64,000 nucleotides of DNA from Candidatus Woesearchaeota archaeon (lineage in GTDB: Archaea > Nanobdellota > Nanobdellia > Woesearchaeales > B29-G15): the NCBI GenBank assembly GCA_017610005.1, contig JAFCCU010000002.1, positions 18,118-82,117 of the forward strand, written 5' to 3'. Every line of letters begins with the position of its first letter. Position 1 is the first letter of the stretch. The notes under the pieces are model-generated. The model did not search any database, was not told where the DNA came from, and was given only the letters and a program-made list of their open reading frames with translations. The position numbers and the translations under genes are program-made. Shown one piece after another: positions 4,001 to 42,218 of this stretch.

Positions 4001-4058
4001 TAACTGTTTGATCGCAAGTTTTATATATTTGTATAGTAAAATAGTGTCTGAGGGAAAA

Positions 4059-21782: not shown

Positions 21783-21813
21783 AAGTTAACCAGAAATAAC
21801 CCTTGTGATCACC

Positions 21814-23841
21814 ATGATAAAAAAGAGCTGGTTAATTTTCTTAGTAGCACTGCTACTTACATCAACAATAGTTACTGCAGGAGATTATTTATTTCCTGGC
21901 GCTTTTGAAGATAATTCTTTTTGGATCGTTTCAATTGAGAGAGATGATGCAATCCTCCCATGCCTTGGGATGATTGAGATTGGATCTGATGCAATTTTGG
22001 TTTCTCCAGAAGGAGAAGAACATCCTACTGAGATTATTTATGGGCCTCATTTCTTTTCTGAAACCTTTATGAATCGGTGGAGAATTGGTGCTGCAGGATT
22101 AAAATTACCTGAAGAACTATTGGGAGAAGGATGGCAACTTAAGTTAACTTGTGAAACCGAAACAGTAAATTGTGTTGACCAATTGTTTTACAGAGATGAT
22201 GATGGGGTTGAAGAAGAAAAATTACCTGGTTTTGCTTATGGTATTTATGAAGATGAACTACAAAGGGTTGATAATATTTGTGAAGATGATATTGTAACTC
22301 AAGCAGTTTGTAGTGATGACAACATAAGTGTTGAGATAGTAAATCTTGAATGCCCAGCAGGTTGCGCTGGGGCTCACTGTGCTCCTGTATTTGTATGCAT
22401 TGATTCAGATATTGATGAAGAAGATTTTACTGTTATTGCTGGTTTTGTTAATATAACAAGGTATGATGAGGAATATAATGAAACCATTTCTATTGCAGAA
22501 TCTTTAGATGTTTGCGATACTAGGGCATTAACAGAATATTATTGTGAAGATGAAACTGCAACAGAAGCAACTTCTGTTGTAATTTACTGTGATCCTGAAT
22601 GTGCTGACGAAGGATCTTGCATGACCCCAGAAGTTGTTATTGATTGGGATAATATCTCTGGATGTTGTTTAAACAAATTAACAGAGCCTTGCAGATATTA
22701 TGATTCGGCTTTAGAGTGTTGCCCAGTAGAAGGTTATGAAGATGTTGTCGATACCTTTGCGCCTCAAAATCAAGAGGAATGTTTGGCTGACTTCTTTTTC
22801 GAATCAGATAATGCTGAAGCATGTGCAGAGATGGGTCCTGAAGATGCAGAAAATTATAGACTTTGTGAAAAAGGATGCTGTTGTGAATATACGACTGCGG
22901 CTGTTGATTGTGGGCCTGAAGAGGAAACTTGTGAATCAACATTAACGGTTACTGCGGCAAATCAATTATCTAGTGTAGCATGTGCAGTAATTGAAGGCCA
23001 CAGGGCTTACTACACATTTGAAACTATTGAAACTTGTTCAATTGAGTCTTGCTCTGAAAGATTAGGAGGAATAGCTGAAAATCAACCTCCTGTATTTGAG
23101 TTATTAGAAGGTCAAATTGATGTATGCCTTGGAGATGAAGTTAAGTTTGATGTTCAGGCAATTGACGCCGATTCAGACTTTTTAATTTATTCAACTGGAG
23201 TTTTACCTGAAGGTGCAACCTTTCAACAAAAAACAATTCCTCAATATGTTGATGAAGGTTATTCAAGTGAGGGGTATGTCTTTACGTGGACTCCAAGTGA
23301 GGTAGAATCAGTTACTCTTAACTTTTCTGTAACTGATAATCTTTATGAAGTCTCACAAGGAGTTGTAATAAATATTAGTGATTGTAATCCAGTCACAATC
23401 AGCGAATGTAAACCAATGACTCCTCCAAATAATAATACAATTTGTTTGGGAGATAAATTCTCATTTTGTTTAGGGATGGGAGAAATATCAGCAGATTCAT
23501 TGCCTGAGGGAGCAACTTTTAACCAAAATTGCTTTGAATGGGAACCAACTGAAGAAGGCCAATATACTGTAACTTTCGTAAAGGAAGATTGTGAAGAACC
23601 ATTAAATCAAGAGCTGTTTGTACAAGATTGTGATAATGGTTTGGGAGAGTGGATAAAGGGTTTATTTATTGGGGCAGGCATTGCCGCAATAATTGTAGCA
23701 ATCCTTGCTTTTATTGTATGGAAAGGGGTCCTGACGATTGTTTGGTTTGGAATTTCCCTTGCAACAGCTCCTTTGCTATTTATGTCCATATTTGTAGCAA
23801 TCGGAGCAATAGTGGGCGCACTGGTCTGGGGGCTTCTCTAA
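21814..23841 (+). CDS. Cys-rich modular surface protein A: signal peptide, CxDxDGG-type Cys repeats, GCC...GCCC signature module, two He_PIG/cadherin-like domains, C-terminal double TM anchor
   Basis: ATG at 21814 (the ORF-track GTG at 21805). MIKKSWLIFLVALLLTSTIVTA signal. Signature module ~22660-23050 (GCCLNKLTEPCRYYDSALECCPVEGYE...EACAEM...GCCCEY). LPEGATF...W(T/E)P He_PIG-like motifs. C-terminal hydrophobic helices. Confidence 0.8.
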   Translation: MIKKSWLIFLVALLLTSTIVTAGDYLFPGAFEDNSFWIVSIERDDAILPCLGMIEIGSDAILVSPEGEEHPTEIIYGPHFFSETFMNRWRIGAAGLKLPEELLGEGWQLKLTCETETVNCVDQLFYRDDDGVEEEKLPGFAYGIYEDELQRVDNICEDDIVTQAVCSDDNISVEIVNLECPAGCAGAHCAPVFVCIDSDIDEEDFTVIAGFVNITRYDEEYNETISIAESLDVCDTRALTEYYCEDETATEATSVVIYCDPECADEGSCMTPEVVIDWDNISGCCLNKLTEPCRYYDSALECCPVEGYEDVVDTFAPQNQEECLADFFFESDNAEACAEMGPEDAENYRLCEKGCCCEYTTAAVDCGPEEETCESTLTVTAANQLSSVACAVIEGHRAYYTFETIETCSIESCSERLGGIAENQPPVFELLEGQIDVCLGDEVKFDVQAIDADSDFLIYSTGVLPEGATFQQKTIPQYVDEGYSSEGYVFTWTPSEVESVTLNFSVTDNLYEVSQGVVINISDCNPVTISECKPMTPPNNNTICLGDKFSFCLGMGEISADSLPEGATFNQNCFEWEPTEEGQYTVTFVKEDCEEPLNQELFVQDCDNGLGEWIKGLFIGAGIAAIIVAILAFIVWKGVLTIVWFGISLATAPLLFMSIFVAIGAIVGALVWGLL

Positions 23842-23930
23842 CTTTTTTTTAATTAACTCCTTTATGGAGACCATTTTAATACGAAATATTTAAAAGAACA
23901 AGCTAACTTTCGTATTCTTGGTGATTATTT

Positions 23931-24362
23931 ATGGCAATTGTAGGATTTGGATTCACAAAAATACTTGTTGAGAAGAAAAAACAGTTAACCTCAAAAATTA
24001 ACATTAAAAATAATATTGCAATAAAAGATATTGTAGAACATGATTTTCATGATGCAGGAAAAGATAGGCAAGGCCTAAAATTTATATTTGAGTTTATATC
24101 AAGTTATGATCCTGGAGCAGCCGAAATAAGACTTCTTGGAGAGGTTTTTTTTATTGCTGAAACAAAGAAATCTCAAGAAATATTAAACACATGGAAGAAA
24201 GACAAGAAAGTAACAAAAGAAGTTATGCCAATTGTCTTAAACTATGCTCTGTCAAGATCTAATGTTATGGCAATTTCATTATCAAAAGATGCTGGACTTC
24301 CACCTCCTTTGCCCATGCCAAGGGTAAACAATGAAAAGGCCGATAACTCTTATATTGGCTAA
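23931..24362 (+). CDS. Hypothetical cytoplasmic protein (143 aa) between surface-protein genes A and B
   Basis: ATG ORF with no signal peptide and no motif recognised. Confidence 0.4.
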   Translation: MAIVGFGFTKILVEKKKQLTSKINIKNNIAIKDIVEHDFHDAGKDRQGLKFIFEFISSYDPGAAEIRLLGEVFFIAETKKSQEILNTWKKDKKVTKEVMPIVLNYALSRSNVMAISLSKDAGLPPPLPMPRVNNEKADNSYIG

Positions 24363-24397
24363 AAGTTTATATATTTGTTATTCAATTTTTTATCTTA

Positions 24398-26581
24398 ATG
24401 ATTAGATATACTGCTTTCTTCATAGCATTTTTATTAGCAGTGTCAATTGCTTCGGCAGCTTGCACTGATACAGATAATGGTAAAACTTACTATGAACTGG
24501 GTAATTGCCAGGCCCCAAATGGATACCCTGGTGATGATGAATGCTGGGACTGGCAAATTGTTAGAGAAAAATTCTGTCAAGATGACGAATCCTGCTGGTT
24601 TTATGATCACCCCTGTAGATATGAATGTGAAGATGGGGCTTGTATTCCTAATCCTAACGAATATTTGATTCCTGTAGGATATGATGGCAAGTGGTACGGC
24701 GCAAGATATCCAAGTAAAAATGACAATATCCCACCTTGCCTTGCATCAGTTAATGAGGGAGATTCAATCAACCTTGTAACAGCAGAATGGCTGGAATTTC
24801 CTGCAAGGGTAGAAGAGGCGCCTCATTCATTTAGGGAGCATATGAATGATTTCCAGATTGTTATTACTGATAATTCAGTTTCAGAGGGACAAAGGCAAGG
24901 GTTAATATTTTCCGCAAGTTTAATTTGTGAAGATGATAGGATGCAATGTATTGATCAGGCAACAAAGGTTAATACTAATAGATACCCAGATGATGGTGAC
25001 TGGATGCCAGGCTTCGCATTTGGAAATTTTTCAGATGAAATTGTGAGAAAAAATAATTATTGTATTGATGATGAGAACTTAACAATATACACATGTGCTG
25101 ATAAATACAATATTCAAAATGTAACAGTTGTATGTGAAAATGGATGCAGTAATGGTCATTGTAAACCTAGATACTTCTGCGAGGATTTTGATGAAGGTCT
25201 TGATCTAAGAACCCCCTCATATGTGGAGATTACAATTGAGCTCGATGGAGAAGAGGATTTTGTTAGAGTATATGAAGATTATTGCAACGGGGATAAAAAA
25301 ATAACAGAGAGAACTTGCAATAGAGATGGAACCTACAAATCAAATATTGAATCATGCTCTTGTGAGGAAGAAGACTGCTGCGATGAAGGAGCATGTGTCA
25401 GTGGGGGGAGCATTAGTGATGTTCCAACAACAATAATCCCTCAAGACCCTGCAGGAACTGAAGATTCTGGATGTTGTTTAAACCCAAATAGGGAAGCATG
25501 CGCCTATTACGACCGGGCGGAAAATTGCTGCTTGGAATGGGAAGATGAATATTTAGTGGAGGGGGGCCCAGTTGATCAGGCAGATTGCCTTGCAAATTAC
25601 TTTTTTGTCTATGAGACAGATGATGCTTGTGCAGTAATGGGAGAAGCATACAATTCATTTGCAAATTATGAGATGTGTTCTTATGGGTGTTGTTGTGTCA
25701 AGGGCCCCATGGGAGATGAAGACTATGTTTATACTGCAACAATTGAAAGAGGGGCTCTTTGTATGGAAACAGATGATAAAATGTGGAGTCCTTTAGCAGA
25801 CATAATTAATTGCGATGAAGCAACTTGTAGGGGGATTATTGCAAATGGTGGGAGCATCAGTGATATTCCCACTATTGCTGACCCTATTATTGATGACCCA
25901 ATTATACCCTCCTCTACTGAACCAATCGAAGATGAAGTTTGCGCTAACGAGGAATTTAAATTATGTTTAGATACTATTGATCCCTTGGGGGGATTTTATC
26001 ACTTCCAAGCAACCTCTGTTCCTTCAGGGGTTGTATTTCATCAAGATCAAGGTTGTATTGTTTGGACTCCAATAATGGAGAATTTGGGTTGGAATATAAT
26101 GAAATTTCAAGACACTGAAAAGGGCAAGGAGGCCCAGATGGGAATAAATGTTTTGTCTTGCTGTCCTGAATTTGTTGAATTACCAAATCAAGAGTCTTGC
26201 ATTAACCAAAATTTAGAATTTTGTTTAGAGGCAGAACCCAATAATGGGAATTTAATCTTTTCAGCAACAACTTACCCTACTGGTGCTACTTTCACTCCCC
26301 TATCGGCTTGCTTTTTATGGAAACCAGAAAAAGAAGGACATTACACAGCTGATTTTTCAGTGTCCAACGGAGAATGTGGAGATCAAATGCAGGTTTCAAT
26401 TTATGCTGGCTCTTGTGGGGCAGAAATCAGCAGCGAGGATGGAGGAATTGATTGGGGACAAATGTGGGTGGGGATAGGTTTAGCGGTGTTGGGTATACTT
26501 GCAATAGCTTTAAGCTGGATTGCTTTCCCAGTATTTTTCGTTATAGAAGCAATTGCAATTGCAATTATGGTATTTTCATAA
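24398..26581 (+). CDS. Cys-rich modular surface protein B (closest paralog of A)
   Basis: Signal MIRYTAFFIAFLLAVSIASA. Signature module ~25469-25840 (GCCLNPNREACAYYDRAENCCLEWEDEY...DACAVM...GCCCVKG). Two He_PIG-like motifs (VPSGVVFHQDQGCIVWTP; YPTGATFTPLSACFLWKP). C-terminal TM. Confidence 0.8.
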   Translation: MIRYTAFFIAFLLAVSIASAACTDTDNGKTYYELGNCQAPNGYPGDDECWDWQIVREKFCQDDESCWFYDHPCRYECEDGACIPNPNEYLIPVGYDGKWYGARYPSKNDNIPPCLASVNEGDSINLVTAEWLEFPARVEEAPHSFREHMNDFQIVITDNSVSEGQRQGLIFSASLICEDDRMQCIDQATKVNTNRYPDDGDWMPGFAFGNFSDEIVRKNNYCIDDENLTIYTCADKYNIQNVTVVCENGCSNGHCKPRYFCEDFDEGLDLRTPSYVEITIELDGEEDFVRVYEDYCNGDKKITERTCNRDGTYKSNIESCSCEEEDCCDEGACVSGGSISDVPTTIIPQDPAGTEDSGCCLNPNREACAYYDRAENCCLEWEDEYLVEGGPVDQADCLANYFFVYETDDACAVMGEAYNSFANYEMCSYGCCCVKGPMGDEDYVYTATIERGALCMETDDKMWSPLADIINCDEATCRGIIANGGSISDIPTIADPIIDDPIIPSSTEPIEDEVCANEEFKLCLDTIDPLGGFYHFQATSVPSGVVFHQDQGCIVWTPIMENLGWNIMKFQDTEKGKEAQMGINVLSCCPEFVELPNQESCINQNLEFCLEAEPNNGNLIFSATTYPTGATFTPLSACFLWKPEKEGHYTADFSVSNGECGDQMQVSIYAGSCGAEISSEDGGIDWGQMWVGIGLAVLGILAIALSWIAFPVFFVIEAIAIAIMVFS

Positions 26582-26606
26582 TTTTTTAACATTAAATTTT
26601 GTAAAC

Positions 26607-27684
26607 ATGAAAAAAGTAATTCTCTTGCTAATTTTTCTTTTAAACATTTACACAGTCTCAGCAGGATGCTGCATCAATCCAAATAGCTACGCTTGTTAGA
26701 TAGTTGATACTCAATGTTGCCCAACAGATGGAGAATACTCTTCTCCTTTTGGCCCCTCTGGACCAAATGACTATAAGACTTATTGGTTTTATGATTCAAC
26801 ACATCCAGAAGCATGCGCAATAATGGGGCTTGAGTCAAGCCCAAATTACCAATTATGTGAATTTGGATGTTGCTGTGAGCTAATGCCAGAGGGGATAACG
26901 AATGGAAAGCCTATGGCCCAGGCAGCTTGCATGGATAATCATCAACGTTGGCACACTTTTGATCAAATACCAGATTGTTCACCAACAAATTGCGCAGCAA
27001 AATTTAACACAAAAGCTGTTGGAGCAACAACTACTACAATAAATTTAGAAACAGCAAGAAGGAGAACTGAGGAATCAGGAGTTGAAGCAGAAGACTTCTT
27101 TGAAAGAGTGCAAGCATGTATTGGAGAACAGTTAGTGTGGTGTCACGATTGGTATATAATTGAGGAAGGTAAAATCCTCCCAGTGGGCGCAATAAGGGTG
27201 AATGATTGCTTTCATTGGACTCCTGACCAGGAAGGAGAATATCAAATAAGTTTAGGATATACGTTTGATGTGCCAAGTTATATAGAAAGAATGTTGCCAG
27301 AACCCACTTTGAATATTTCAGTGGATTACTGTGGTGATTGCTTTCTTATTGCAGAGATTGCTGATGAAAATACTGCAGAAGGGATATGATCCCTTTTATG
27401 GTTGAAGCTGCAGATGAAGAAGGGGATTTACTCACTTACTCAGCATTAAATTTACCAGAGGGCGCAATTTTCAAAACTGATATTGGATTATTTTTTTGGC
27501 AGAGCAAGGATGCAACACCCGGCATATATGAATTAGAATTTGTTGTAACAGATGGAAAATGCACTGTTTTGAGAAAGTAACTCTTGAGATTGAAGAGTGC
27601 GGCGACACATCAATAGTATCACAGATTCTTGCTATGCTTGCTATAATTTTTGGTGGGGCAACTGTTTATACAATTGCTGCATGA
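26607..27684 (+). pseudogene. Decayed paralog C of the Cys-rich surface-protein family (in-frame TAG plus at least 2 frameshifts)
   Basis: Signal peptide and GCCINPNSYAC then TAG at 26697-26699, exactly where paralogs have the conserved Tyr (C-x-Y-x-D). The frame then continues through CCPTDGEY...EACAIM...GCCCE. Frameshifts near 27386 and ~27575. The He_PIG-like and C-terminal TM remnant (ILAMLAIIFGGATVYTIAA) are in other frames. Confidence 0.75.
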
Positions 27685-27761
27685 GTTGGTTTAATTGATG
27701 CCCCAGCCCATGTAAAACAATATGGTAAATTTCTCGCTGATACAACTGGTCTTGGAACTTT

Positions 27762-27932
27762 TTTAAACAAAAGAATTCCACCCTTCTATTGAAGGGTGGT
27801 CTAGGTGGAATTCTGTGTGCTCAAAAATTACCTATGATCGGTGGAATTCTGAGCATCAAAAACCACTCAACAGCGAGCAAGCTTTTCAACATGCCACCAA
27901 TGTATTCACTGGTGGTTTTTGACAAGCAGTTG
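27762..27932 (+). repeat. MITE-like intergenic repeat, copy B
   Basis: Same family as 20930..21075 and 54199..54485. Lies between the pseudogene and surface-protein gene D. Confidence 0.75.
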
Positions 27933-27985
27933 CAATGCATTTTAATAGAAAAATTTAAATGTTAAAACCTTAAATAATAATAACA

Positions 27986-29587
27986 ATGAAGAAATTTGTA
28001 TTTGTAGTCATTCTTTTTTTACTCTTTTTAACAGCGTGTGACAAAGATACAGATGGTGATGGAATTTCTGATACTGAAGATAATTGTATTGGTATTAGAA
28101 ACTCGGATCAAATAGATTCAGATAAAGATGGCTGGGGGGATCCATGCGATTTTAATGAAGATCTAAGTGAAACACTTTTATATTTTTCCGCAACCTGGTG
28201 TACTTATTGCCATGAACAGTTACCAATTATTCGAGAACTTGATCAAGACTTTCCAGATTTAGAAATTCAATATCTTGATTTTGATGCAAGGCAAGATTTA
28301 GTTAGGGAATATGGTATTGTGGGTGTGCCTCATTATGTATTTATAAAAGGAGATTGTTGGAAAAAAACAAGAGGTACAACAAGTTATTCAGAATTAGTTA
28401 ATTGGATGGGAAAGGGTGCTTGCGCAAGATCAGCAGCAGTCCGTAGCCAAGGAGTCAATTTGCAGTCTGAAGTCATAAGTCAGAAGTCACTCAAACCCCA
28501 AACCCCAAACCCCAAACCCCAAACCTTACCAACTGGTTGTTGTATAAATCCTAATGAAAATGCGTGTGTTTATTCTGATGATATTGATAAATGTTGCCCA
28601 GTAGATGGTTATGAAGAATCAATAGGACCGCAATCACAAGCTGAATGTAAAGAACATTGGTTCTTTCCCCACGCAACAGAAGAAGCATGCAGCGTAATGG
28701 ATCCATTAACTTATGAAAATGCACAATATTGTGAATTTGGGTGCTGTTGCGAGGCTACCCCCATAGGTATAGCTGCATTTGCCTCAGAAAAAATCAAGTG
28801 TAATGATTATTGGGGAAGTTATGAAGAATTAAATTGCACGGTAAATGATTGTTCTAAATTTATTGAAGGGGGGGCAACATTAAAGACTGCTTCTCGTGTT
28901 TCTCCAATGGCAACAATCTCAGTTACTCAAACAGAAGATGAAACTTGCGTTGATGAATTGTATATTTTTTGTACAGTAAATCCTTTAGCTACTGAGATAT
29001 CAAATTTACCTGCTGGCGCAATAATTACTAACAACTGCATTGAATTCACCCCCACTGAAGCCCGTAGTTATTCAATTACGTTTAGAGAGGGAGATTATTA
29101 TTCAGAGGTACTAAACTTAGAGGTAATAGACTGCTCTGATCCGCCAGTTTTAGGATTCTTGCGAAATCGGAATGTATACAAAAATCAGATATTTAGTATT
29201 AGGGTACGTGCTACTGGGACAGGAGATTTGACATATGTAGTAGAGGATATGCCTGATGATGCCAAATTCAATCCAAAAAAATTAAAATTTTCTTGGATTC
29301 CAAGAGAGGAGAACGTTGGCAAACAATATAATGTTAAATTTATTGTGATAGATTCAAATGGGAGAACTGATGAAAAAACAGTTGAACTTAATGTTAGAAA
29401 TTATTCTTTCATGTGGATAGCTGGTTTGTCATTGGCCCTTGCAGGTTTACTTTACTTAGGTGCATTATTTTCCGGATTGCTTGAATCTCTAACATGGTTT
29501 TCCTCTTCTGCATGGATATATGTTGCAGGGGCTTGTATTGCGATATCCTTTATTCTGGTCGCGCTTTATTTTCTTTCGGGATTATGA
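27986..29587 (+). CDS. Cys-rich modular surface protein D with thrombospondin type-3 repeats and a thioredoxin-like CxxC domain
   Basis: Lipobox-like signal (FLLFLTAC). TSP3 repeats DKDTDGDGISDTEDNC / DSDKDGWGDPCD. Trx-fold motif LLYFSATWCTYCHEQ...GVPHYVFI. Pro/Thr linker encoded by repeats. Signature module ~28535-28860 (GCCINPNENACVYSDDIDKCCPVDGYE...EACSVM...GCCCEA). He_PIG-like LPAGAIITNNCIEFTPT. C-terminal TMs. Confidence 0.8.
   Translation: MKKFVFVVILFLLFLTACDKDTDGDGISDTEDNCIGIRNSDQIDSDKDGWGDPCDFNEDLSETLLYFSATWCTYCHEQLPIIRELDQDFPDLEIQYLDFDARQDLVREYGIVGVPHYVFIKGDCWKKTRGTTSYSELVNWMGKGACARSAAVRSQGVNLQSEVISQKSLKPQTPNPKPQTLPTGCCINPNENACVYSDDIDKCCPVDGYEESIGPQSQAECKEHWFFPHATEEACSVMDPLTYENAQYCEFGCCCEATPIGIAAFASEKIKCNDYWGSYEELNCTVNDCSKFIEGGATLKTASRVSPMATISVTQTEDETCVDELYIFCTVNPLATEISNLPAGAIITNNCIEFTPTEARSYSITFREGDYYSEVLNLEVIDCSDPPVLGFLRNRNVYKNQIFSIRVRATGTGDLTYVVEDMPDDAKFNPKKLKFSWIPREENVGKQYNVKFIVIDSNGRTDEKTVELNVRNYSFMWIAGLSLALAGLLYLGALFSGLLESLTWFSSSAWIYVAGACIAISFILVALYFLSGL
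28461..28527. repeat. In-frame simple-sequence tract inside gene D: octamer-family units followed by (AAACCCC) x 4.7
   Basis: cagtctgaagtcataagtcagaagtcac then aaacccc x4 plus aaacc (28493-28525). It encodes QSEVISQKSLKPQTPNPKPQT. Confidence 0.85.
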
Positions 29588-29648
29588 GCTTAGATATACT
29601 TAAGGATTTATAAAAACCTTTTTAAGTTCTCTGATATAACCTAAACAA

Positions 29649-31037
29649 ATGCTAAGAGTATTTAACACATTAACAAGGAAGAAAGAAGAGTTTATCCCAA
29701 TAAAACAAGGAGAGGTAAGAATGTATTCTTGCGGACTTACTGTTTATGGATTTGGGCATATTGGAAATTTTCGCGCGTTTATTGCATCTGATTTAATTTC
29801 TAGGTATTTAAAATATAAGGGATATAAGGTTACAAAGGTAATTAACATAACAGATGTTGATGATAAAACAATCAGGGGAGCAATTAAAGAAGGAGTCTCT
29901 TTAAACAAATACACTGAAAAATATATTAAGGGTTTTTTTGATGATATTAATACATTAAATGTTGATCCTGCTAATTATTATCCTAAGGCAACTGATTATA
30001 TTAAAGAGATAGTTGAACTTATTGAAAAATTAAAGGCTAAAGGCCATACTTATGAACAAGATGGCTCAATTTATTTTAAGATTTCAAGCGATAAAAATTA
30101 TGGGAAATTAGCGCATTTAGATTTTTCTAAATTAGTTGATAACGCGCAAGGACGGTTAGATTCTGATGAATATGATAAAGATAATGCAAGAGACTTTGTA
30201 TTATGGAAGGGTTACAAAGAAACAGATGGCGAAATATTTTGGAATACAAAGCTTGGCAAGGGAAGACCTGGATGGCACATTGAATGTTCTGCAATGTCAA
30301 CCAAATTATTGGGTGACTCTTTTGATATTCATACGGGTGGAGTTGATTTAATATTCCCTCACCACACAAACGAAATAGCTCAAAGTGAAAATGCAACTTG
30401 CAAACATTATGTGAAGTATTGGCTTCATAATGAATACTTAAAAGTTGAAGGCGAAAAAATGTCAAAGTCTTTGGGGAACTTTTTCACATTAAAAGATTTA
30501 TTAGAAAAAGGACTTGATCCAATAGCAATTCGTTATGAACTTTTAGCAACAAATTATAGAATGCCATTAAATTTTACAATAGATGGCGTAGGGGCATCAA
30601 AGGTTGCAATTGAAAAATTAAATAATTTTGTGTGGGAATTGACTGTTGCAAAAGAAGGAAAGTTATCAGAAAATATTGAAGAATTAATCAAATCAGCAAA
30701 AGATAACTTTGAATCTGCAATGGATGATGATTTTAATATATCTAGGGCACTTGCAAGTATATTTGACTTTATGAAATCAATCTTTAAAGAAGGATTTACA
30801 TCTGCTGATTCAAAACTAATTCTAAGTTTCTTAAAAAGTATCGATTCTGTGCTAGGAGTTATCTCTTTTGAAAGAGATACTGAGATTGATAAGAATATTG
30901 AGCAACTAATTGAACAAAGAAATATTGCAAGAAAAAATAAAGACTTTACAACAAGTGACAGAATTAGAGATGATCTGCTCAAGAAGGGAATTGAACTTTT
31001 AGACGGGCCAGAAGGCACTAAATGGCGCAAAAAATAA
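29649..31037 (+). CDS. cysS: Cysteinyl-tRNA synthetase
   Basis: 462 aa class I aaRS with MYSCGLTVYGFGHIGNFR (HIGH), KMSKSLGN, and the CysRS length and anticodon-binding tail. Confidence 0.9.
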   Translation: MLRVFNTLTRKKEEFIPIKQGEVRMYSCGLTVYGFGHIGNFRAFIASDLISRYLKYKGYKVTKVINITDVDDKTIRGAIKEGVSLNKYTEKYIKGFFDDINTLNVDPANYYPKATDYIKEIVELIEKLKAKGHTYEQDGSIYFKISSDKNYGKLAHLDFSKLVDNAQGRLDSDEYDKDNARDFVLWKGYKETDGEIFWNTKLGKGRPGWHIECSAMSTKLLGDSFDIHTGGVDLIFPHHTNEIAQSENATCKHYVKYWLHNEYLKVEGEKMSKSLGNFFTLKDLLEKGLDPIAIRYELLATNYRMPLNFTIDGVGASKVAIEKLNNFVWELTVAKEGKLSENIEELIKSAKDNFESAMDDDFNISRALASIFDFMKSIFKEGFTSADSKLILSFLKSIDSVLGVISFERDTEIDKNIEQLIEQRNIARKNKDFTTSDRIRDDLLKKGIELLDGPEGTKWRKK

Positions 31038-31065
31038 ATACTAGGGTTGTTGATTCTTAAGTATT

Positions 31066-32469
31066 GTGAAAAAAGAACTTATATATTTTTTAATGGCATT
31101 AGTATTATCTTTCTCAGTTGTTGGTGCTGGTTGTGATGGTTCAACCGGATTATGTGATGCTCCAGAAGAAGGACAAGAATGTATTTACGAAACAGATTAT
31201 GGATTTAATCTATACTTAAAAGGAACTTGTTCTGATGGGCAGATTGATCCAGTGACAGATAAATGCTCACAAGAAAGAGTGGGCGTGCCAGTTCAAATTG
31301 AAGAGTATTACTGCAATACTTACGGGCAGTGCCACATGATGCAAAAATGGTGCCCCAATGGGTGTTTAAATGGGGAATGTTTGCCTTCTGGTATACCTAC
31401 AACTTCTGCTACTCCTGGATGTTATGATGAAGATGGGGGTATTTTTTACGATCGACAAGGTACTTGCACAGATAAATTTGGAACCCACACAGAAAGTTGT
31501 GATTATGCAAAAGGGTATAGAATAACTGAATATTATTGTGTAAATGTAACTGGGGGAGATGGATGTGGGGGAGGAGTTTGTGGGGATGATGATGTTCCTG
31601 AATTCCGATGCATGGCGCAAGGCACAAGATGTAGTGGGGGTTATTGTGAGAGGGGCGCTTGTACAACTGAACTTTATATGGATAGTGCAACTCCTGGTTG
31701 TTGTTTGAACCCTAAAACAAGACCTTGTGATTATGTTTCTAATATTAGATCTTGTTGTCCTTCATCTTGGCAGGGATATGCTGCATGGGATGAACCTGGA
31801 CCAAAAGGGATATTTGATTGTGCAGCTGCTTGGTTTTTCCCTTCTGACTCTCCAGAGGCTTGTGCAGCCATGGCAGAAGCTGAGCATCCAAAAGCAGACA
31901 TGTGTGGCTTTGGCTGTTGTTGTTACAAAACTCCTAGTGATGAAATAAGGTCAGACCAACAAACCCAGTCAGAATGTACTGGCACCGATAAACAATGGGT
32001 AAATTTTGGTACAATAACTGAATGTACCCCCCAATATTGCCATGGTTACTTTGATGGGGGCACGCTTGCAGATGACCCAGATGTTCCAACCACAACTACC
32101 AGTGTGGAATACACTCCTGGCTCACCTCAAGAAGATGATGATGGGGATGGGGTAGTGAATGGGATTGATAATTGCATAAATACATTCAATTCTCAGAATA
32201 ATATTGATAATGATGAGTTTGGAGACGCATGTGATCCTGATATGGACAATGATGGAATAATAAATGAGGAAGATGAATGTCCTCTTGATATTACAAAATC
32301 AGTTAAACCTTGCAGTGACAAACAAATAGCCCCATTGTGGTTTTTGGCAGGAGGCGCATTAGCGGGATTAATTGCATCTTTTTTTATTCCTGGCGCAACA
32401 ATTATTATTGGATTGCTTATTGGTGCGATTTTAGGATTAATTGCATTATTATTGGTGAGTTCATTATGA
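31066..32469 (+). CDS. Cys-rich modular surface protein E (two CxDxDGG-type repeats, signature module, TSP3 repeats, C-terminal TM)
   Basis: GTG start. Signal MKKELIYFLMALVLSFSVVGAGC. Signature module ~31696-32050 (GCCLNPKTRPCDYVSNIRSCCP...EACAAM...GCCCYK). TSP3 DDDGDGVVNGIDNC...DPDMDNDGIINEEDEC. TM FFIPGATIIIGLLIGAILGLIALLLV. Confidence 0.8.
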   Translation: MKKELIYFLMALVLSFSVVGAGCDGSTGLCDAPEEGQECIYETDYGFNLYLKGTCSDGQIDPVTDKCSQERVGVPVQIEEYYCNTYGQCHMMQKWCPNGCLNGECLPSGIPTTSATPGCYDEDGGIFYDRQGTCTDKFGTHTESCDYAKGYRITEYYCVNVTGGDGCGGGVCGDDDVPEFRCMAQGTRCSGGYCERGACTTELYMDSATPGCCLNPKTRPCDYVSNIRSCCPSSWQGYAAWDEPGPKGIFDCAAAWFFPSDSPEACAAMAEAEHPKADMCGFGCCCYKTPSDEIRSDQQTQSECTGTDKQWVNFGTITECTPQYCHGYFDGGTLADDPDVPTTTTSVEYTPGSPQEDDDGDGVVNGIDNCINTFNSQNNIDNDEFGDACDPDMDNDGIINEEDECPLDITKSVKPCSDKQIAPLWFLAGGALAGLIASFFIPGATIIIGLLIGAILGLIALLLVSSL

Positions 32470-33605
32470 AAAAGTATTATACTAAGAGTAATAATGCAAA
32501 TGATATCATGAAACAAATCATATATTTTTTAATTGCAGTTTTATTAATTTGGAATGCTACTGCTACAGCTTATGATCACAGTTGTACTGATAGTGATGGG
32601 GGTAAGAATTACCATATTAAAGGTAATTGTGTTGACTATGACCAATCTGAGATGGACTACTGCAATGGTTATAATTATATCCAAGAGTGGTATTGCTTTT
32701 CTGGCTGTATGGACTTCCCCATGGAAGCTAGTTCAGAATTGCAAGGCCATGATCCTAATTGTATCTGGGGTTGTTATGATGGTAGATGCGCAAGTAATGG
32801 AGAAATCATTGAAAGTTTAGGTTTAATTTACACTCCGGGAGAGTGCCTTGATACAGATGGAGGAATTGATAAATTCACTGATGGAATTTGTATAGACTCA
32901 GATGGGAAGTATTACATCGAACAATGCAATAAGGGGAATGTAGAGGAATATTATTGTGAAAGCAATATGTGCAAAAGAGCATTTGGAGAACAGGATACTT
33001 ATTGTCCTGGTGGAACAGGTGAGATGCAGGATCAGGGAGGATGTGAAGCTGGCGCTTGTAAGAAAGTTGATGAAACCTTAAGTGGGTGTTGTTTTAATCC
33101 TGATACTGTTGCTTGTGAATGGATAGATAAAAGAGATGACTGCTGTCCTGTTTTTGGAGATTATGAAAAAGATTTGCCTTTTGGGCCAGATAAGACAACT
33201 GATTGCATTAATAATTGGTTCTTTAAAACTGAAAAGAGCGAAGAATGCCCTCCTAAATTAGATGTGTTTGAAAATAGTAAACATTGTCTTAATGGTTGCT
33301 GTTGCTTTAGAGATCCTGAAGGAGTTGCTCACGCAACTATTCTTCCCCAATTAGTTTGTAAATGGTGGCAGCCTTTTGAAGCTGTAGAAGAATTTGGTTG
33401 TGTTGATTCATATTGTGAAGAAATTGTGCCAATTGTAGAAGCAGGGATTGTTCCGCCTAAAGCTACAACTACAATTTTACAAGAGTCTCCGACAACAATA
33501 AATATCCAAGAACCAGAAGGAACTGGACTAAATACGTTTCAAATCTCAATTATAATTTTTATTATCCTTGTATTGTTCATCCTTGCAGCCCTCTTTTTGC
33601 TGTAA
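32466..33605 (+). CDS. Cys-rich modular surface protein F
   Basis: ATG at 32466 overlaps the stop of gene E (ATGA), so the two are translationally coupled. The ORF-track N-terminal extension from 32337 is an artefact. Signal MKQIIYFLIAVLLIWNATA. Signature module ~33084-33420 (GCCFNPDTVACEWIDKRDDCCPVFGDYE...GCCCFR). C-terminal TM. Confidence 0.8.
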   Translation: MKKYYTKSNNANDIMKQIIYFLIAVLLIWNATATAYDHSCTDSDGGKNYHIKGNCVDYDQSEMDYCNGYNYIQEWYCFSGCMDFPMEASSELQGHDPNCIWGCYDGRCASNGEIIESLGLIYTPGECLDTDGGIDKFTDGICIDSDGKYYIEQCNKGNVEEYYCESNMCKRAFGEQDTYCPGGTGEMQDQGGCEAGACKKVDETLSGCCFNPDTVACEWIDKRDDCCPVFGDYEKDLPFGPDKTTDCINNWFFKTEKSEECPPKLDVFENSKHCLNGCCCFRDPEGVAHATILPQLVCKWWQPFEAVEEFGCVDSYCEEIVPIVEAGIVPPKATTTILQESPTTINIQEPEGTGLNTFQISIIIFIILVLFILAALFLL

Positions 33606-33659
33606 AATTGGGAAAATTTTATATACCTTGGACATAACTTTTATATCCATAGATAACAA

Positions 33660-35078
33660 ATGTGCAAAATGAAAAGATTAATACCCCTGTTTATATTCTT
33701 ATTTGTAATTAGTTTTGTGTATGGTGGGACATACAATCCTCCAGCTCAAGGAATTGGGGCAATGACTTCTGCTTGGTGTATTGATGGAGATGGGCCCGAC
33801 ACTGGAGATTTTAGTACTCATCCAGATTATAGTGGAGACACAAACTGGGCCCCAGAACCAAGAAAAGTTAAAAGTTTTTGTACAAGCCAAATAGATTACC
33901 CTCATCAAAGAGAAGATTCTTGTGTTGATGGATTGTACTCTTTAATGGAATGGGAATGTACTGGCTGTGCAGGTGGGGGCAGTCAAGAATGCGATAACCC
34001 TTTAGATACTTGCGAATTTGGGTGTGTTCATGGGGCATGTTTAGATTCAAGACAAGATTTATTGAACCACATTTATGGGGCAGATAGCCCTGCTTCACTT
34101 TGGTTTGAAGGCCAGTGTAAGGATTCTGATGATCATGATGGGTTTTTATATGATAAATATGATGGAATGGATTATACCGTCCAAGGGGTCTGTGTTGATA
34201 GTAGAGGAGATGTATTTATTGATTATTGCAATAAAGGGCATTTACAAGAATATGTTTGCACTACCGGGGGAGACTGCACTCCACTTGATGAACCAGATGA
34301 TAATGAATGTGACTTGTGTAAGAATGGTAAGTGTATTACTCTTGATAAAACAGTTAGTGGATGTTGCTTAAGTGAGTTTACAACTGGGTGTGGGTATGTT
34401 GATAAATTAGATCAATGCTGTCCAGATTATGGCACTTACGCAGGTGATGATGAGACTGGTCCCACTAGCCCCGGAGATTGCCGTGATAATTATTTTTATG
34501 AAAGAGAAGATACAGAAGCTTGCAGTTTAATTCCTGATACTTTTGAAAATAAAGATTTATGTTTTAGTGGCTGCTGTTGCGATCTTGATACTGAAGGTAA
34601 TCCTCTTGGAAAGCCTTTAAAAAAAGTTGAATGTAACTTATGGCTTGCAGATGGTGTAATGGAACAATTTGGGGGATGTAATCCAGAAAATTGTTTAGTC
34701 GCATCAGGGGGGCAATCATTAATTTCAGGAGAGAGGGATAGCGATCAAGATGGGGTTAATGACGCAGAAGATAATTGTATTTATATCCCAAATCCAATAA
34801 ATGATGATGGGATCCAACTAGATTCAGATAATGATGGTTTGGGAGATGCCTGCGATCCAGATGATGATAATGATGGTATTTTGGATGTAGATGATGACCC
34901 AATAGTCCCTGAAACTTTTATGGAAAAATTATTTGCTTCAGAATCTTTCTGGGGGATACTTATTGCAATATTTGTTGTCCTTGCATTAATATTTTTTACT
35001 TCATTAACTTGGATACCAATTACCCTAATAGGTATTGGAATAGCACTAGCAGGAGTTTTAATTGAGTTTTTGGGGTGA
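33660..35078 (+). CDS. Cys-rich modular surface protein G (signature module plus TSP3 repeats plus C-terminal TM)
   Basis: Signal MKRLIPLFIFLFVISFVYG. Signature module ~34359-34700 (GCCLSEFTTGCGYVDKLDQCCPDYGTY...EACSLI...GCCCDL). TSP3 DSDQDGVNDAEDNC...DSDNDGLGDACDPDDDNDGILD. Confidence 0.8.
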   Translation: MCKMKRLIPLFIFLFVISFVYGGTYNPPAQGIGAMTSAWCIDGDGPDTGDFSTHPDYSGDTNWAPEPRKVKSFCTSQIDYPHQREDSCVDGLYSLMEWECTGCAGGGSQECDNPLDTCEFGCVHGACLDSRQDLLNHIYGADSPASLWFEGQCKDSDDHDGFLYDKYDGMDYTVQGVCVDSRGDVFIDYCNKGHLQEYVCTTGGDCTPLDEPDDNECDLCKNGKCITLDKTVSGCCLSEFTTGCGYVDKLDQCCPDYGTYAGDDETGPTSPGDCRDNYFYEREDTEACSLIPDTFENKDLCFSGCCCDLDTEGNPLGKPLKKVECNLWLADGVMEQFGGCNPENCLVASGGQSLISGERDSDQDGVNDAEDNCIYIPNPINDDGIQLDSDNDGLGDACDPDDDNDGILDVDDDPIVPETFMEKLFASESFWGILIAIFVVLALIFFTSLTWIPITLIGIGIALAGVLIEFLG

Positions 35079-35131
35079 ATTATTAACATTTGCCCACAAA
35101 GTTTAAATAACATTTTTTTTATTTAATTAGA

Positions 35132-37624
35132 ATGAAGTATTCACTTTCTTTACTCCTTTTCTTACTAATCCCCCTAACCTTCGCCGCAACACTTGAGACT
35201 TATGAGGGCGGAGCTGTTGACCCAGCAGGATTTTCTATGAGTGCTAGTGGCGCGCAAACACTTAGCATTAGTAAAACTGTTTATACTGACAGCACAATTC
35301 CCTTACAAATCTCCAATTCAATATATGGTTTTTCAATTTCAGGCAACTTCAATTTACAAACAGACTCAGCAACATTAAGAGTGATTTTAATAGATAGTAA
35401 TGACCAAGAATACTTGGTTTTTGAAGCATATAACTTGCTTTATGGCCAAGGTTATGGCTCATTTAATTACATCTGCGAAGAAACCTGCTTACTTCATGGA
35501 GTTAACCCAAGTAATCTAAAAGTTGAAATTGATGGTGCAACAATGGATATAGCTAATGCCCATTATATAACCCAAAGGCCTCTTTCTCCGCAGGCCATTA
35601 GTACACAGAAAAGTGATAATCAACAATCTCAAACAAATTTTAAAATCCAAAAGTTAAATGAAAAAGCAGAAGGCTGGATTGCTGGAGAAACTGAGGTGGG
35701 GAATTTATTATATTCAGAAAAAAAAAATCTTTTTGGAGGAGAAAAACTTCCTAACTTGCAAGGATTTGAATATTATAAAGGAGGAGTATTCTCTTTTGGC
35801 AAAAGCACAACAGTTAATCAAAAAAATTTAAACTTCCAGTTTCCAATTAAATTTGATTGGCGTGACCGCCATGGCAAGTCTTGGATTCCCAATATTGAAT
35901 CTCAAGGTCATTGTGGCGCTTGCTGGGCGTTTGGAGTATCATCAACAGTTGATGCAGTAATTAATTTGTATTATAATCGAAGGTTAAACATTGACATGTC
36001 TGAACAACACATTATTTGTGATAAAAAGGGTTCGTGTGTGGGTGGAGCTTGGCCACAAAGAGCTTTAAACCTTTTTAAAAATGAGGGAATTGTTGAAGAG
36101 AATTGTATGTATTATTCTGCAAGGGATGATGATTGTGATAGGTTATGTAATGAATGGCAAAAATCTCTTTGGAAGATTGAGGATTACCATCTTGTATTGG
36201 GATCAGATGATTCAATAAAAAAAGCATTAATTGAGCATGGGCCTTTAACTTTTGCGACTGCATTTTGGGATGGGAGATCAATGGAAGGTTCAAATTACGG
36301 AAATTTCCCGGATGGTCCAAGGCCTTGGGCAAATCATGCGATGAGTCTTATTGGATATGAGACTGGTTCATTAGAGACTATTTGGATTGTTAAGAATTCC
36401 TGGGGCCGTACCTGGGGCCAAAATGGTTATGGCTATATTCAACTGCCTTTTATTCAAAGATGGTCTATATACTGGATTGAACATCCTTATTTGGAATATG
36501 ATCCTGATAGATTTGAAGTGAGATGTGAGGATAAGGATGGAGATAATTATTGTAATTGGGGAATAATTGGGGATAAACCTGTTACTTGCCCAGAGAATTG
36601 CCTTCAATTAAAAGATTGCGATGATTCAAATCCTCACTTTGGCCCATACTCAGATACATTTGAATGTATTGAAATAACCTCCAGCAGGGCAGGAATTTCA
36701 GTAAAGAATGATTCAAAAGGGTGTTGTGTAAATCCCTATAGCGAGGCATGTGTGATATCCACAAAAAATCAGTGTTGCCCAGATGAAGGATATGGGGTTA
36801 CAAAAGATTTGGGACCAATTTCAAGAGAAGAATGTGAATCTCATTTTTTTTACCCTTCTGAATCAGCTGAAGCATGCGTGCTTATGGATTTATCAAGTTT
36901 TCCAAATGCTAATTTTTGTAATGCTGGTTGCTGCTGCACTAGATTTGAAGATTCTAAATTTTCTTTCCCTCTGCTGGAGGGTGAAGAAAAAATAAAGGCT
37001 CAATGTTTAAATGATTATCAAAGATGGTATACTTATCAGGAAGTAGGAGGATATTGTTCTAATTGGGAATGTGGGAATATTGCTTCAGGCATAGCCAGTA
37101 CATCAGGAACTCTTTATGGATCGCATCCGATAGATGAGTTTAATAGGCCACTTATTTCTTCTGCTATAGAATACAAGGGAACTGTGGGTGAAGAGTTAAT
37201 GTTTAGAATTGAGGCCACTGGGGCAAAACCAATTACTTTTTTAATGTTAGAATTTGAAAAGCCAATCCCTAACGGTGTTGAATTTAATCCAATCACTGGG
37301 GTTTTTAAGTGGACTCCAAAAAAAGCAGATGTTTTTACATTCAAGGTTGTAGCTCAAAATAAGAATGGTTATGATTCTGAATTGATTCAAATAGATATTT
37401 TTGATAATTCTCCTGCAGGGAATAACCTTATGTGGGGGTTAATCTTAGCAGGATTAGCTCTTTTTGTGGCAATTATAGGGATTGCTTTTTATGGGCTTAT
37501 TGGTTTTGTTGCAGGGTTTTTGGGGCTTGCAGGGCTCTGGGGAATGATAATTTCTGGAGTAGCAATAATATTGGCTGCACCTTCAGCTGGTTTTATTTTA
37601 GGATGGATATTGGGTTTTTGTTAG
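35132..37624 (+). CDS. Cys-rich modular surface protein H carrying a papain-like (C1A) cysteine peptidase domain
   Basis: Signal MKYSLSLLLFLLIPLTFAA. C1 motifs ~35850-36450: FDWRDRHG, QGHCGACWAFG (catalytic Cys), ANHAMSLIGYE (His), VKNSWGRTWGQNGYGYI (Asn). Signature module ~36719-37080 (GCCVNPYSEACVISTKNQCCPDEGYG...EACVLM...GCCCTR). He_PIG-like IPNGVEFNPITGVFKWTP. C-terminal Gly-rich TMs. Confidence 0.85.
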   Translation: MKYSLSLLLFLLIPLTFAATLETYEGGAVDPAGFSMSASGAQTLSISKTVYTDSTIPLQISNSIYGFSISGNFNLQTDSATLRVILIDSNDQEYLVFEAYNLLYGQGYGSFNYICEETCLLHGVNPSNLKVEIDGATMDIANAHYITQRPLSPQAISTQKSDNQQSQTNFKIQKLNEKAEGWIAGETEVGNLLYSEKKNLFGGEKLPNLQGFEYYKGGVFSFGKSTTVNQKNLNFQFPIKFDWRDRHGKSWIPNIESQGHCGACWAFGVSSTVDAVINLYYNRRLNIDMSEQHIICDKKGSCVGGAWPQRALNLFKNEGIVEENCMYYSARDDDCDRLCNEWQKSLWKIEDYHLVLGSDDSIKKALIEHGPLTFATAFWDGRSMEGSNYGNFPDGPRPWANHAMSLIGYETGSLETIWIVKNSWGRTWGQNGYGYIQLPFIQRWSIYWIEHPYLEYDPDRFEVRCEDKDGDNYCNWGIIGDKPVTCPENCLQLKDCDDSNPHFGPYSDTFECIEITSSRAGISVKNDSKGCCVNPYSEACVISTKNQCCPDEGYGVTKDLGPISREECESHFFYPSESAEACVLMDLSSFPNANFCNAGCCCTRFEDSKFSFPLLEGEEKIKAQCLNDYQRWYTYQEVGGYCSNWECGNIASGIASTSGTLYGSHPIDEFNRPLISSAIEYKGTVGEELMFRIEATGAKPITFLMLEFEKPIPNGVEFNPITGVFKWTPKKADVFTFKVVAQNKNGYDSELIQIDIFDNSPAGNNLMWGLILAGLALFVAIIGIAFYGLIGFVAGFLGLAGLWGMIISGVAIILAAPSAGFILGWILGFC

Positions 37625-40220: not shown

Positions 40221-40297
40221 TTTAGAATATCTCTCTCTATTAAATTGATTTATATAGAAGAATAAGGTAGTCAGAATCAATTTATAAGGTTTGCCAT

Positions 40298-40415: not shown

Positions 40416-40460
40416 TATTTGCCCAAAAGATTAATAAAAGCGCTGGCAAAAATAGTCCTT

Positions 40461-42218
40461 ATGTCACGAATTGCAATTGTTGAGCGTAAGAAGTGTAATC
40501 CTACTAATTGTGGGAATTTTCTTTGCCAAAGAGTCTGCCCAGTTAACCGTAAGGGAGATGAATGTGTATTTGAAGCAGAAGGGAAGGTAGGAATTGATGA
40601 AAGTCTTTGTATTGGGTGTGGAATTTGCGTCAAAAAATGCCCATTTGAGGCTATTCAGATCATTAATCTACCTGCACAGCTTGATAAGCCACCAATTCAT
40701 TGCTATGGCAAGAATGGATTTCACTTATTTAACCTGCCAATGCCAATTTTTGGAAAAGTTGTGGGAATTATTGGGAAAAATGGGATTGGAAAGACAACTG
40801 CAATTAATATTTTATCTGGGCTTCTCAGTCCCAATCTTGGTGTGCCTAGAAAGAAAGCAAAATTAGCTGAACTTATTGAATATTTTAAGGGAACTGAACT
40901 TCATAATTACTTTGAAAAATTAAATGCTGGAGAAATAAATGTTGCAGTAAAACCTCAACAAGTATCAATGCTTCCAAAACACTTCAAGGGAAGCGTAAAA
41001 GAATTATTAATTGAGATGGATGAGAAAAAGCAACTTAATGAAATTGCTAAGACCCTTGAATTAGAGAATATTTTTGATAGAAAACTTGATCAAATTTCTG
41101 GTGGAGAATTACAAAGAGTTGCAATTGCTGCTTGTGTTTTACGTAAAGCAAATGTTTACTTTTTTGATGAACCAACTTCTTATTTAGATATTAAACAAAG
41201 AATTAAGGTTAGTAAATTTATTAGAAATTTAGCAGATGAAAATACTGCGGTAGTTGTGATTGAACATGATTTAATTATTCTAGATTATATGACTGACCAA
41301 ATTCACATAACTTTTGGTGCGCCTTCAGCTTATGGTGTTGTGTCAAGTATTGCGGCCACAAAAGAAGGGATTAATGAATACTTGGCAGGCTTTTTAAGAA
41401 AAGAAAATATGAGATTTAGGGCCAATACAATCTCTTTTGATGATAAACCTCCAGTAAAAACTATTCAAGGAGATTTGTTAGTTTCTTGGGATAATTTATC
41501 TAAGACTCTCGGAAGTTTTAAATTTAGGGCATCCCCTGGAGGACTTTCAAGAAAACATGTCATTGGAGTTTTAGGAGAAAATGGAATCGGCAAATCCACT
41601 TTTATGAAAATTTTAGCTGGAGAATTAAAAGTTGATTCTGGCAAGGTTTCAGATAAGGTTTCTTTAGCATATAAACCCCAATATATTGATACTGATTCAG
41701 ATATGATTGTAAGAGAATATCTTAAAGAAGTAATTGCAAAATTTTCAACCGAACTTGTTGCACCATTAAAACTTGAGAAATTGTTTAATGAACCATTAAA
41801 GCAGCTTTCAGGAGGAGAATTACAAAAAGTAATGATTGCAAAAACCCTTGGTCAAGAAGCTGTTAATCTATTCTTATTAGATGAGCCATCTGCCTACCTT
41901 GATGTTGAACAAAGGTTAATTACTTCAAAAGTCATTTCAAAGCTTATTCATAACAGCGGCAAAACTGCATTAATAATTGATCACGATTTATTATTCATGG
42001 ATTATTTGTCTGAAGATTTAATCGTATTTGAAGGTGAACCTGCAAAGCGAGGTCAACTTGAAGGCCCATTTGAAATGGAAAAAGGCATGAATAAATTTCT
42101 AACAGACTTAAACCTTTCAATGAGGCGTGATCAAGAAAGCAAACGCCCAAGAGTTAACAAACTAAACTCTCGACTAGACAGAGAACAAAAAGGAAAAAAG
42201 AAGTTATATTATAGTTGA
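40461..42218 (+). CDS. abcE1: ABCE1 / RNase L inhibitor homolog (ribosome recycling factor; 2 x 4Fe-4S plus two ABC ATPase domains)
   Basis: ATG at 40461 (MSRIAIVERKKCNPTNCG...). Fe-S clusters CNPTNCGNFLCQRVCPVN and CIGCGICVKKCP. Two Walker A sites (GKNGIGKTT; GENGIGKST) and two ABC signatures (LSGGELQ). Confidence 0.9.
   Translation: MSRIAIVERKKCNPTNCGNFLCQRVCPVNRKGDECVFEAEGKVGIDESLCIGCGICVKKCPFEAIQIINLPAQLDKPPIHCYGKNGFHLFNLPMPIFGKVVGIIGKNGIGKTTAINILSGLLSPNLGVPRKKAKLAELIEYFKGTELHNYFEKLNAGEINVAVKPQQVSMLPKHFKGSVKELLIEMDEKKQLNEIAKTLELENIFDRKLDQISGGELQRVAIAACVLRKANVYFFDEPTSYLDIKQRIKVSKFIRNLADENTAVVVIEHDLIILDYMTDQIHITFGAPSAYGVVSSIAATKEGINEYLAGFLRKENMRFRANTISFDDKPPVKTIQGDLLVSWDNLSKTLGSFKFRASPGGLSRKHVIGVLGENGIGKSTFMKILAGELKVDSGKVSDKVSLAYKPQYIDTDSDMIVREYLKEVIAKFSTELVAPLKLEKLFNEPLKQLSGGELQKVMIAKTLGQEAVNLFLLDEPSAYLDVEQRLITSKVISKLIHNSGKTALIIDHDLLFMDYLSEDLIVFEGEPAKRGQLEGPFEMEKGMNKFLTDLNLSMRRDQESKRPRVNKLNSRLDREQKGKKKLYYS

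Follow-up and report, generated by a model that had tools for sequence, protein, structure and literature searches.

A cysteine-rich module common to a cluster of predicted surface-protein genes in a woesearchaeotal archaeon

The locus and its eight module-bearing genes

The DNA considered here (the window) is a 64,000-nucleotide archaeal chromosome segment with ~36% GC, from the assembly GCA_017610005.1 of Candidatus Woesearchaeota archaeon (contig JAFCCU010000002.1, positions 18,118 to 82,117 of the forward strand). Eight open reading frames (ORFs) on its + strand, lying in the region 21805-37624 and termed genes A to H, each contain one copy of a cysteine-rich module of ~115 residues with 14 conserved cysteine columns, which opens with the motif G-C-C and is called the GCC module below. 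The module is a real domain under selection, and the proteins that carry it are built for export. The eight genes and their modules are laid out as follows; signal peptides and anchors are those predicted from hydrophobicity, and the E-values of the modules are those obtained with a profile of 35 family members.

21805..23841, + strand: gene A, 678 amino acids (aa) from GTG (the database version starts at 21814), identical to the family representative P0004; signal peptide, 8-Cys beta modules, GCC module, He_PIG immunoglobulin (Ig)-like domain (E = 1.1e-8), C-terminal hydrophobic anchor at ~23641-23838
22660..23061, + strand: GCC module of gene A, 16 Cys, namely the 14 conserved ones and one extra pair in an insertion; E = 1e-27
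24398..26581, + strand: gene B, 727 aa, with an ortholog at 43% identity in locus L073; signal peptide, three 8-Cys modules, GCC module, Ig-like region, double hydrophobic anchor at ~26453-26578
25469..25837, + strand: GCC module of gene B, 14 Cys, CCL in place of CCP; E = 6.4e-32
26607..27389, + strand: gene C, signal peptide and GCC module, read as a decayed paralog (pseudogene)
26664..27005, + strand: GCC module of gene C, 13 Cys, interrupted by TAG; E = 3.1e-28
27986..29587, + strand: gene D, 533 aa, with the same fusion in the orthologs P0010 (L094) and P0025 (L023); lipobox-like signal peptide, thrombospondin type 3 (TSP3) repeat (TSP_3, E = 3.1e-6), thioredoxin domain, GCC module, He_PIG, double hydrophobic anchor at ~29402-29584
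~28151-28408, + strand: thioredoxin domain of gene D, active site W-C-T-Y-C; E = 1.5e-11
28535..28864, + strand: GCC module of gene D, 14 Cys; E = 1.5e-29
31066..32469, + strand: gene E, 467 aa, with an ortholog at 46% identity in L094; signal peptide, two 8-Cys modules, GCC module, TSP3 repeats, double hydrophobic anchor at ~32326-32466
31696..32052, + strand: GCC module of gene E, 14 Cys; E = 2.5e-36
32466..33605, + strand: gene F, likely start at ATG 32466 or 32508 (the listed ORF runs from 32337); signal peptide, two 8-Cys modules, GCC module, single hydrophobic anchor at ~33516-33602
33084..33425, + strand: GCC module of gene F, 14 Cys, E-E-C-P-P-K in place of E-A-C-x-M; E = 1e-27
33660..35078, + strand: gene G, 472 aa; signal peptide, 8-Cys modules, GCC module, TSP3 repeats, double hydrophobic anchor at ~34926-35075
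34359..34697, + strand: GCC module of gene G, 14 Cys; E = 2.5e-27
35132..37624, + strand: gene H, 830 aa, with a like protease and module architecture in P0013; signal peptide, N-terminal region, papain-family Peptidase_C1 at ~35843-36442 (E = 7.4e-37), GCC module, He_PIG, multi-pass hydrophobic anchor at ~37415-37621
36719..37081, + strand: GCC module of gene H, 14 Cys, the query of the AlphaFold2 model

The first-pass annotation of this DNA, made from the letters and their translations, had placed the starts of the eight modules at 22660, 25469, 26664, 28535, 31696, 33084, 34359 and 36719, and from each of these positions the frame-0 translation indeed opens with G-C-C-[LIVF]-[NS] and continues in a common cysteine register. 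The 35-member profile recognizes all eight modules with domain E-values from 1e-27 to 2.5e-36 and ends them within a few codons of the ends first read, including the last three cysteines, which belong to the module as the original consensus had it. An alignment of the eight copies using MAFFT has 16 invariant columns, 12 of them cysteines, at pairwise identities of 31-36%, and the module is the best-conserved portion of window paralogs that are otherwise unalignable. A six-frame scan for GCC and CCC found no further copy in the 64 kb. The annotation had called the GCC, CCP, E-A-C-x-M and GCCC elements invariant; their register stands, while the invariance gives way in genes B and F, where the second and third of these elements, respectively, are replaced as listed above. 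Further, an exhaustive HMMER search of 1.84 billion protein cluster representatives with a profile of just the eight copies retrieved 38 proteins at E <= 1e-3, of which 27 reached E <= 1e-10 and six are the window's own. All 38 share the single 14-Cys register, and a pattern that singles out so few proteins from so large a collection, always in the same register, is not a product of chance.

Eight copies are thus present, but not eight intact paralogs, since gene C is disrupted. A TAG lies in frame at 26697-26699, inside the module, the conserved Cys6 is gone (D-C has become D-Y), and a Kyte-Doolittle scan shows no C-terminal hydrophobic segment; we read it as a pseudogene, a decaying paralog. 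Recoding of the TAG by pyrrolysine or read-through was considered and rejected because the codon is an ordinary stop here, terminating three of the 38 long ORFs of the window, gene H among them, and because of the lost Cys6 and the missing anchor.

Known families, fold and distribution of the module

The annotation had not recognized the module as a named domain, and comparisons with known families agree. Searches of Pfam-A (24,736 models) gave no match on the module in the eight window proteins or in 32 other members, and when 35 isolated modules were compared with Pfam-A at E <= 10, only nine unrelated families appeared, each in a single member and with a best E of 0.018. Among the 18,950 NCBIfam models there was likewise no match on the module, all matches lying on the TSP3-like and thioredoxin parts and far below the curated cut-offs, and a profile search of the PDB sequences returned nothing at E <= 10. 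The carriers are named either 'hypothetical protein' or after an adjoining TSP3 or thioredoxin domain. Literature on cysteine-rich, disulfide, thrombospondin or surface proteins of DPANN archaea or Woesearchaeota yielded no description of the module. An AlphaFold2 prediction with the 35-module alignment and the gene H copy as query reached a predicted local distance difference test score (pLDDT) of 93.0 and a predicted template modelling score (pTM) of 0.81, with all five models at a pLDDT of 92-93. In the predicted structure a three-stranded sheet, with the G-C-C-C motif in its first strand, is joined by four short helices and a C-terminal helix; comparison of this confident alpha/beta model with the PDB found no fold neighbour. 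A cysteine-rich extracellular module in mosaic surface proteins is a familiar kind of thing, and as far as tested in the Pfam, NCBIfam and PDB comparisons it is the family and the fold that are new, this rare family being restricted to a little-understood group of archaea.

Some characterized domains offer partial parallels. The granulin motif has twelve cysteines with four CC pairs at fixed spacing. Granulin/epithelin domains (PF00396) and the GCC module are both small extracellular units with a signature made up almost wholly of cysteines, with adjacent CC pairs and a CCP, with many presumed disulfides and, as in other ladders of CC doublets, with neighbouring cysteines presumably bonded to different partners. 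However, the module has 14 cysteines rather than 12 and a different spacing, it does not match PF00396 even at E = 10, and its predicted alpha/beta fold differs from the beta-hairpin stack of granulin. With the thrombospondins and proteins of the COMP type the carriers share the mosaic of small disulfide-rich and Ca-binding extracellular modules, and TSP3 repeats (PF02412) accompany the module in genes D, E and G and in at least ten other family members; the GCC module is nevertheless distinct from these repeats and unmatched by PF02412, and the naming of carriers after thrombospondin is due only to the adjoining repeats.

The 38 representatives stand for clusters of 1-4 members at 90% identity. 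Besides 'hypothetical protein', their names in the source databases include 'thrombospondin type 3 repeat-containing protein [Candidatus Woesearchaeota archaeon]' (MBW2988048.1) and, for P0010, 'thiol-disulfide isomerase/thioredoxin'; RLE43591.1 and RLE43052.1 are hypothetical proteins of Candidatus Woesearchaeota. The annotation's guess of a DPANN origin fits such labels, which are available for a few members only. A word-index homology search with the 8- and 35-module alignments found nothing at E <= 1e-3, which reflects a limit of the index, the family being present in that collection. We also scanned DNA with a degenerate fixed-gap pattern, G-C-C-x-N-P-x4-C-x8-C-C, which catches ~40% of modules, so that the genome counts derived from it are lower bounds. 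Chance accounted for 36 of the 41 genome matches, 45 of the 50 metagenome matches and both viral matches, mostly in high-GC bacteria. Five true loci were found among the species representatives of GTDB: a Woesearchaeota metagenome-assembled genome (MAG) from lake sediment with two tandem copies (L001), a Woesearchaeota MAG from Guaymas Basin (L017) and three contigs (L015, L023 and L035) of one bin labelled Methanosarcinales. The metagenome scan found these again and added one new locus (L073), and no fewer than five carriers are spread over three contigs of the assembly GCA_053939445.1. The Methanosarcinales label was not accepted as a spread beyond DPANN. A fused PriS-PriL primase is a DPANN trait, and L035 (CAYOTZ010000013.1) encodes at 757-2241 a 494-aa protein matching both the small and large DNA primase subunits; the three contigs are probably misassigned, in label or in binning.

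Export, cysteines and possible role

Nearly all full-length members begin with a signal-peptide-like hydrophobic segment, as judged by a Kyte-Doolittle scan rather than a dedicated predictor, and in most the C-terminus is made up of one to three hydrophobic helices, often a ~45-residue hairpin that runs to the last residue. These features support export and a surface location for the module-bearing proteins, and with them the extracellular setting that the annotation had proposed. The anchors of A, B, D, E, G and H (e.g. 26453-26578, 29402-29584 and 37415-37621) are hydrophobic stretches of 45-70 residues that resemble a helical hairpin and have no cytoplasmic tail; the C-terminal sorting-signal models of NCBIfam do not match them.

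A protein generally has one module; only P0030 and P0033 show a second, weak one. In the window genes it lies between the N-terminal domains and the Ig-like or TSP3 region ahead of the anchor, and in 14 representatives it begins 0-5 residues past the predicted signal peptide. A lipobox reading of the resulting A-G-C-C was rejected, as GCC is also found far into the interior of proteins and no fixed residue precedes the glycine. The partner domains are interchangeable: 1) a papain-like protease (Peptidase_C1, in H); 2) a thioredoxin-fold oxidoreductase (in D); 3) the Ig-like He_PIG (in A, B, D and H in the Pfam-A and NCBIfam searches); 4) the Ca-binding TSP3 repeat (TSP_3, in D, E and G); and 5) a second, 8-Cys beta module. 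The order thioredoxin then module recurs in gene D, P0010 and P0025, and Peptidase_C1 then module in gene H and P0013, while a protein of L097 (5926-7782) has the reverse order, with the GCC module at its N-terminus (aa 22-111) and Peptidase_C1 behind it. Such recurrence of fusions together with shuffling of domain order indicates a mobile, independently folding domain. The thioredoxin domain of gene D, P0010 and P0025 (L023, 4214-5830) retains a W-C-[TR]-Y-C active site, a G-[VL]-P loop of the cis-Pro type and a second cysteine pair, and its fusion to the module behind a lipobox-like signal peptide is kept in three lineages; by these motifs the D-type protein looks like a surface-tethered extracytoplasmic thiol-disulfide oxidoreductase.

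We lean towards the view that the module is an autonomous extracellular alpha/beta domain of ~115 residues with seven disulfides, common to a lineage-specific surface-protein family of Woesearchaeota-type DPANN archaea, and that its role is in docking or assembly. By analogy it would be a rigid unit, resistant to proteases and denaturation, which might tie differing surface proteins to one another, or to a common partner in the envelope lattice of the cell itself or on a host cell, and it would probably not be a catalytic or small-ligand site. The D-type paralog, as a tethered oxidoreductase or isomerase using its W-C-[TR]-Y-C site, might then form or reshuffle the disulfides of the family. 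Docking is favoured because a single conserved copy on many partner domains follows the logic of dockerins and S-layer homology (SLH) domains, which likewise occur once per protein and are borne by several proteins of a genome, beside partner domains that have nothing in common. The parallel ends there: neither has sequence or fold similarity to the module, and the intact proteins of the window carry membrane anchors of their own. Dockerins, moreover, are Ca-binding EF-hand-like duplications devoid of disulfides, and no cohesin-like partner of the module was identified.

Several points weigh against the docking and disulfide reading. The docking role is argued from architectural analogy only, and the position of the module relative to the anchor varies, being membrane-proximal in the window genes and at the mature N-terminus in the 14 others, a placement that would suit the distal tip of an adhesin as well as a docking unit. 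Co-loss suggests only two of the cysteine pairings, each from one to two sequences. The lake and hydrothermal sediments from which the carriers come, by their record names, are presumably anoxic, and extracellular disulfides there would need an oxidant. Taxon labels, finally, cover only a few members.

The main competing explanation, which we regard as somewhat unlikely, is that the module is the ligand-binding tip of an adhesin, recognizing a glycan or protein of a host or substrate on which the partner domains then act. It is supported by the 14 members with the N-terminal placement just mentioned. In the window, however, the module is the best-conserved part of the paralogs and lies near the anchor rather than at the tip, and a single host-recognition domain has no obvious need to be repeated on seven co-encoded proteins.

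The annotation had left open whether the module is disulfide-knotted or metal-binding; that alternative holds as posed, and the evidence favours disulfides. Complete modules contain an even number of cysteines, 12, 14 or 16, with the exceptions of P0016 (15) and P0024 (13, in the extracted stretch). Co-variation of the cysteines, which the annotation had suggested as a route to the pairing, points to two bonds: P0030 and P0033 have lost both Cys1 and Cys7, and P0032 both Cys9 and Cys14. Where Cys9 is missing in P0022 and P0023, a new cysteine makes up for it, and extra cysteines arise as pairs in gene A and P0038. The module alignment has no conserved His, Asp or Met column that could supply ligands, and its spacings are GCC, CCP and C-x2-GCCC, with no CxxC, CxxCH or CxxCxxC. 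Since cysteines are lost and gained in pairs, and neither a ligand column nor CxxC-type spacing is found, seven disulfides rather than metal ligands are favoured as what would hold the module together. That the cysteines instead bind a metal or an iron-sulfur cluster, making the module an extracellular redox or metal-sequestering domain akin to a metallothionein or an electron-transfer unit, appears very unlikely to us. The runs of CC, CC and CCC do recall metallothioneins, a Cu-binding_MopE motif is present in P0007 outside the module, and the presumably reducing sediments of the record names would be unfavourable to disulfides; but a four-ligand site would be expected to disappear as a whole and not two residues at a time. 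Further, a cysteine content of only ~12%, conserved aromatics (W/F-F-[FY]) and a confidently modelled alpha/beta fold are not those of metallothioneins or iron-sulfur proteins, and the lone match to a metallothionein family of Pfam, in one member, has E = 8.6. Least likely of all is that the module is a redox switch or substrate handle whose disulfides are opened and closed by the thioredoxin-type paralog so as to regulate the protease and other domains, for although three lineages conserve the thioredoxin-module fusion, and at least three proteins join the module to a cysteine protease with its redox-sensitive catalytic thiol, most carriers lack any enzyme domain that could be regulated and fourteen structural cysteines far exceed those of known redox switches.

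A bolder form of the docking reading, doubtful as a whole, would make the module the docking element of a surface assembly system specific to DPANN archaea and similar to cohesin and dockerin, but built on a new seven-disulfide fold. It might join the co-encoded protease, a tethered disulfide isomerase and Ca-binding and glycan-binding modules into a structure for contact with, or attack on, a host, with the D-type thioredoxin as the system's own disulfide catalyst in an anoxic habitat.

The genomes of Woesearchaeota and other DPANN archaea are small, and a life attached to other cells is presumed for these organisms. To our knowledge their contact molecules are almost entirely obscure, because the surface proteins are annotated 'hypothetical'. 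With the model, the cysteine register and the profile in hand, the domain can be registered as a new family, used as a marker of islands of DPANN surface-protein genes, and expressed. The lineage-conserved fusion of thioredoxin and module bears on how organisms of apparently anoxic sediments make disulfide-rich extracellular proteins. Should the module be merely a structural spacer, what remains is a useful annotation and nothing beyond it; interest would be high only if a docking or host-contact role were demonstrated.

Neighbouring genes and history of the locus

The family takes up ~13 kb of the 64 kb window, which also encodes RpoB and RpoA'/A'' as split subunits, a proteasome subunit, FttA/aCPSF1, ABCE1, a cysteinyl-tRNA synthetase (CysRS) and two aminoacyl-tRNA synthetases of the Ile/Leu/Val type. 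The genes that interrupt or border the cluster are:

23931..24362, + strand: 143-aa gene between A and B, conserved, with no Pfam match, not a member of the family; part of the syntenic backbone
29649..31037, + strand: CysRS between D and E (PF01406, E = 2.9e-108); part of the syntenic backbone
37782..40280, - strand: class I aminoacyl-tRNA synthetase of the Ile/Leu/Val type (ValRS-like), which bounds the cluster
40419-42218: ABCE1, after the ValRS-like gene

The same housekeeping genes accompany the module in relatives. In L001 two module genes adjoin the ValRS-like gene (69.5% identity) and ABCE1 (67.5%); in L073 an ortholog of the 143-aa gene at 70% is followed by the gene B ortholog at 43%; and the order in L094 is a module protein, an ortholog of D at 32%, CysRS at 69% (3312-4736) and the ortholog of E at 46%. 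L095 and L097 both combine module genes with the 143-aa gene ortholog (43% and 34%, respectively, directly upstream of CysRS in each), CysRS at 57-59% (L095 8888-10276, L097 16445-17839) and the ValRS-like gene at 63-64%, with ABCE1 next in L095 at 65%. The ValRS-like boundary of the cluster thus recurs in L001, L095 and L097. The site must be old, since relatives share this backbone, and the family grew there by tandem duplication in the lineage of the window, its members diverging much faster than their neighbours, as tends to be the case for surface proteins of symbionts. Hypothetical cell-surface proteins with elevated non-synonymous variation have been described in Nanoarchaeota (PMC6142677). 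A functional link between CysRS and the cysteine-rich cluster around it was considered and is unlikely: CysRS belongs to the syntenic housekeeping block (143-aa gene, CysRS, ValRS-like gene, ABCE1) around which the paralogs expanded, and its place within the cluster is probably a legacy of that block.

Three further genes of the window deserve mention. A 528-aa protein with no Pfam match, encoded at 3921-5507 next to FttA and 16 kb upstream of the module genes, has orthologs at 41-42% identity that sit among module genes in L095 (6028-7470) and L097 (12962-14389). The product of the gene at 5740-7551 has an amidohydrolase domain and, close to the C-terminus, a TSP3 repeat but no GCC module; it may be another exported mosaic protein. 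A 345-aa protein encoded on the - strand at 46568-47605 has a weak match to the lamin-tail domain (LTD; E = 2.8e-6, below the Pfam cut-off) and may be another surface protein.

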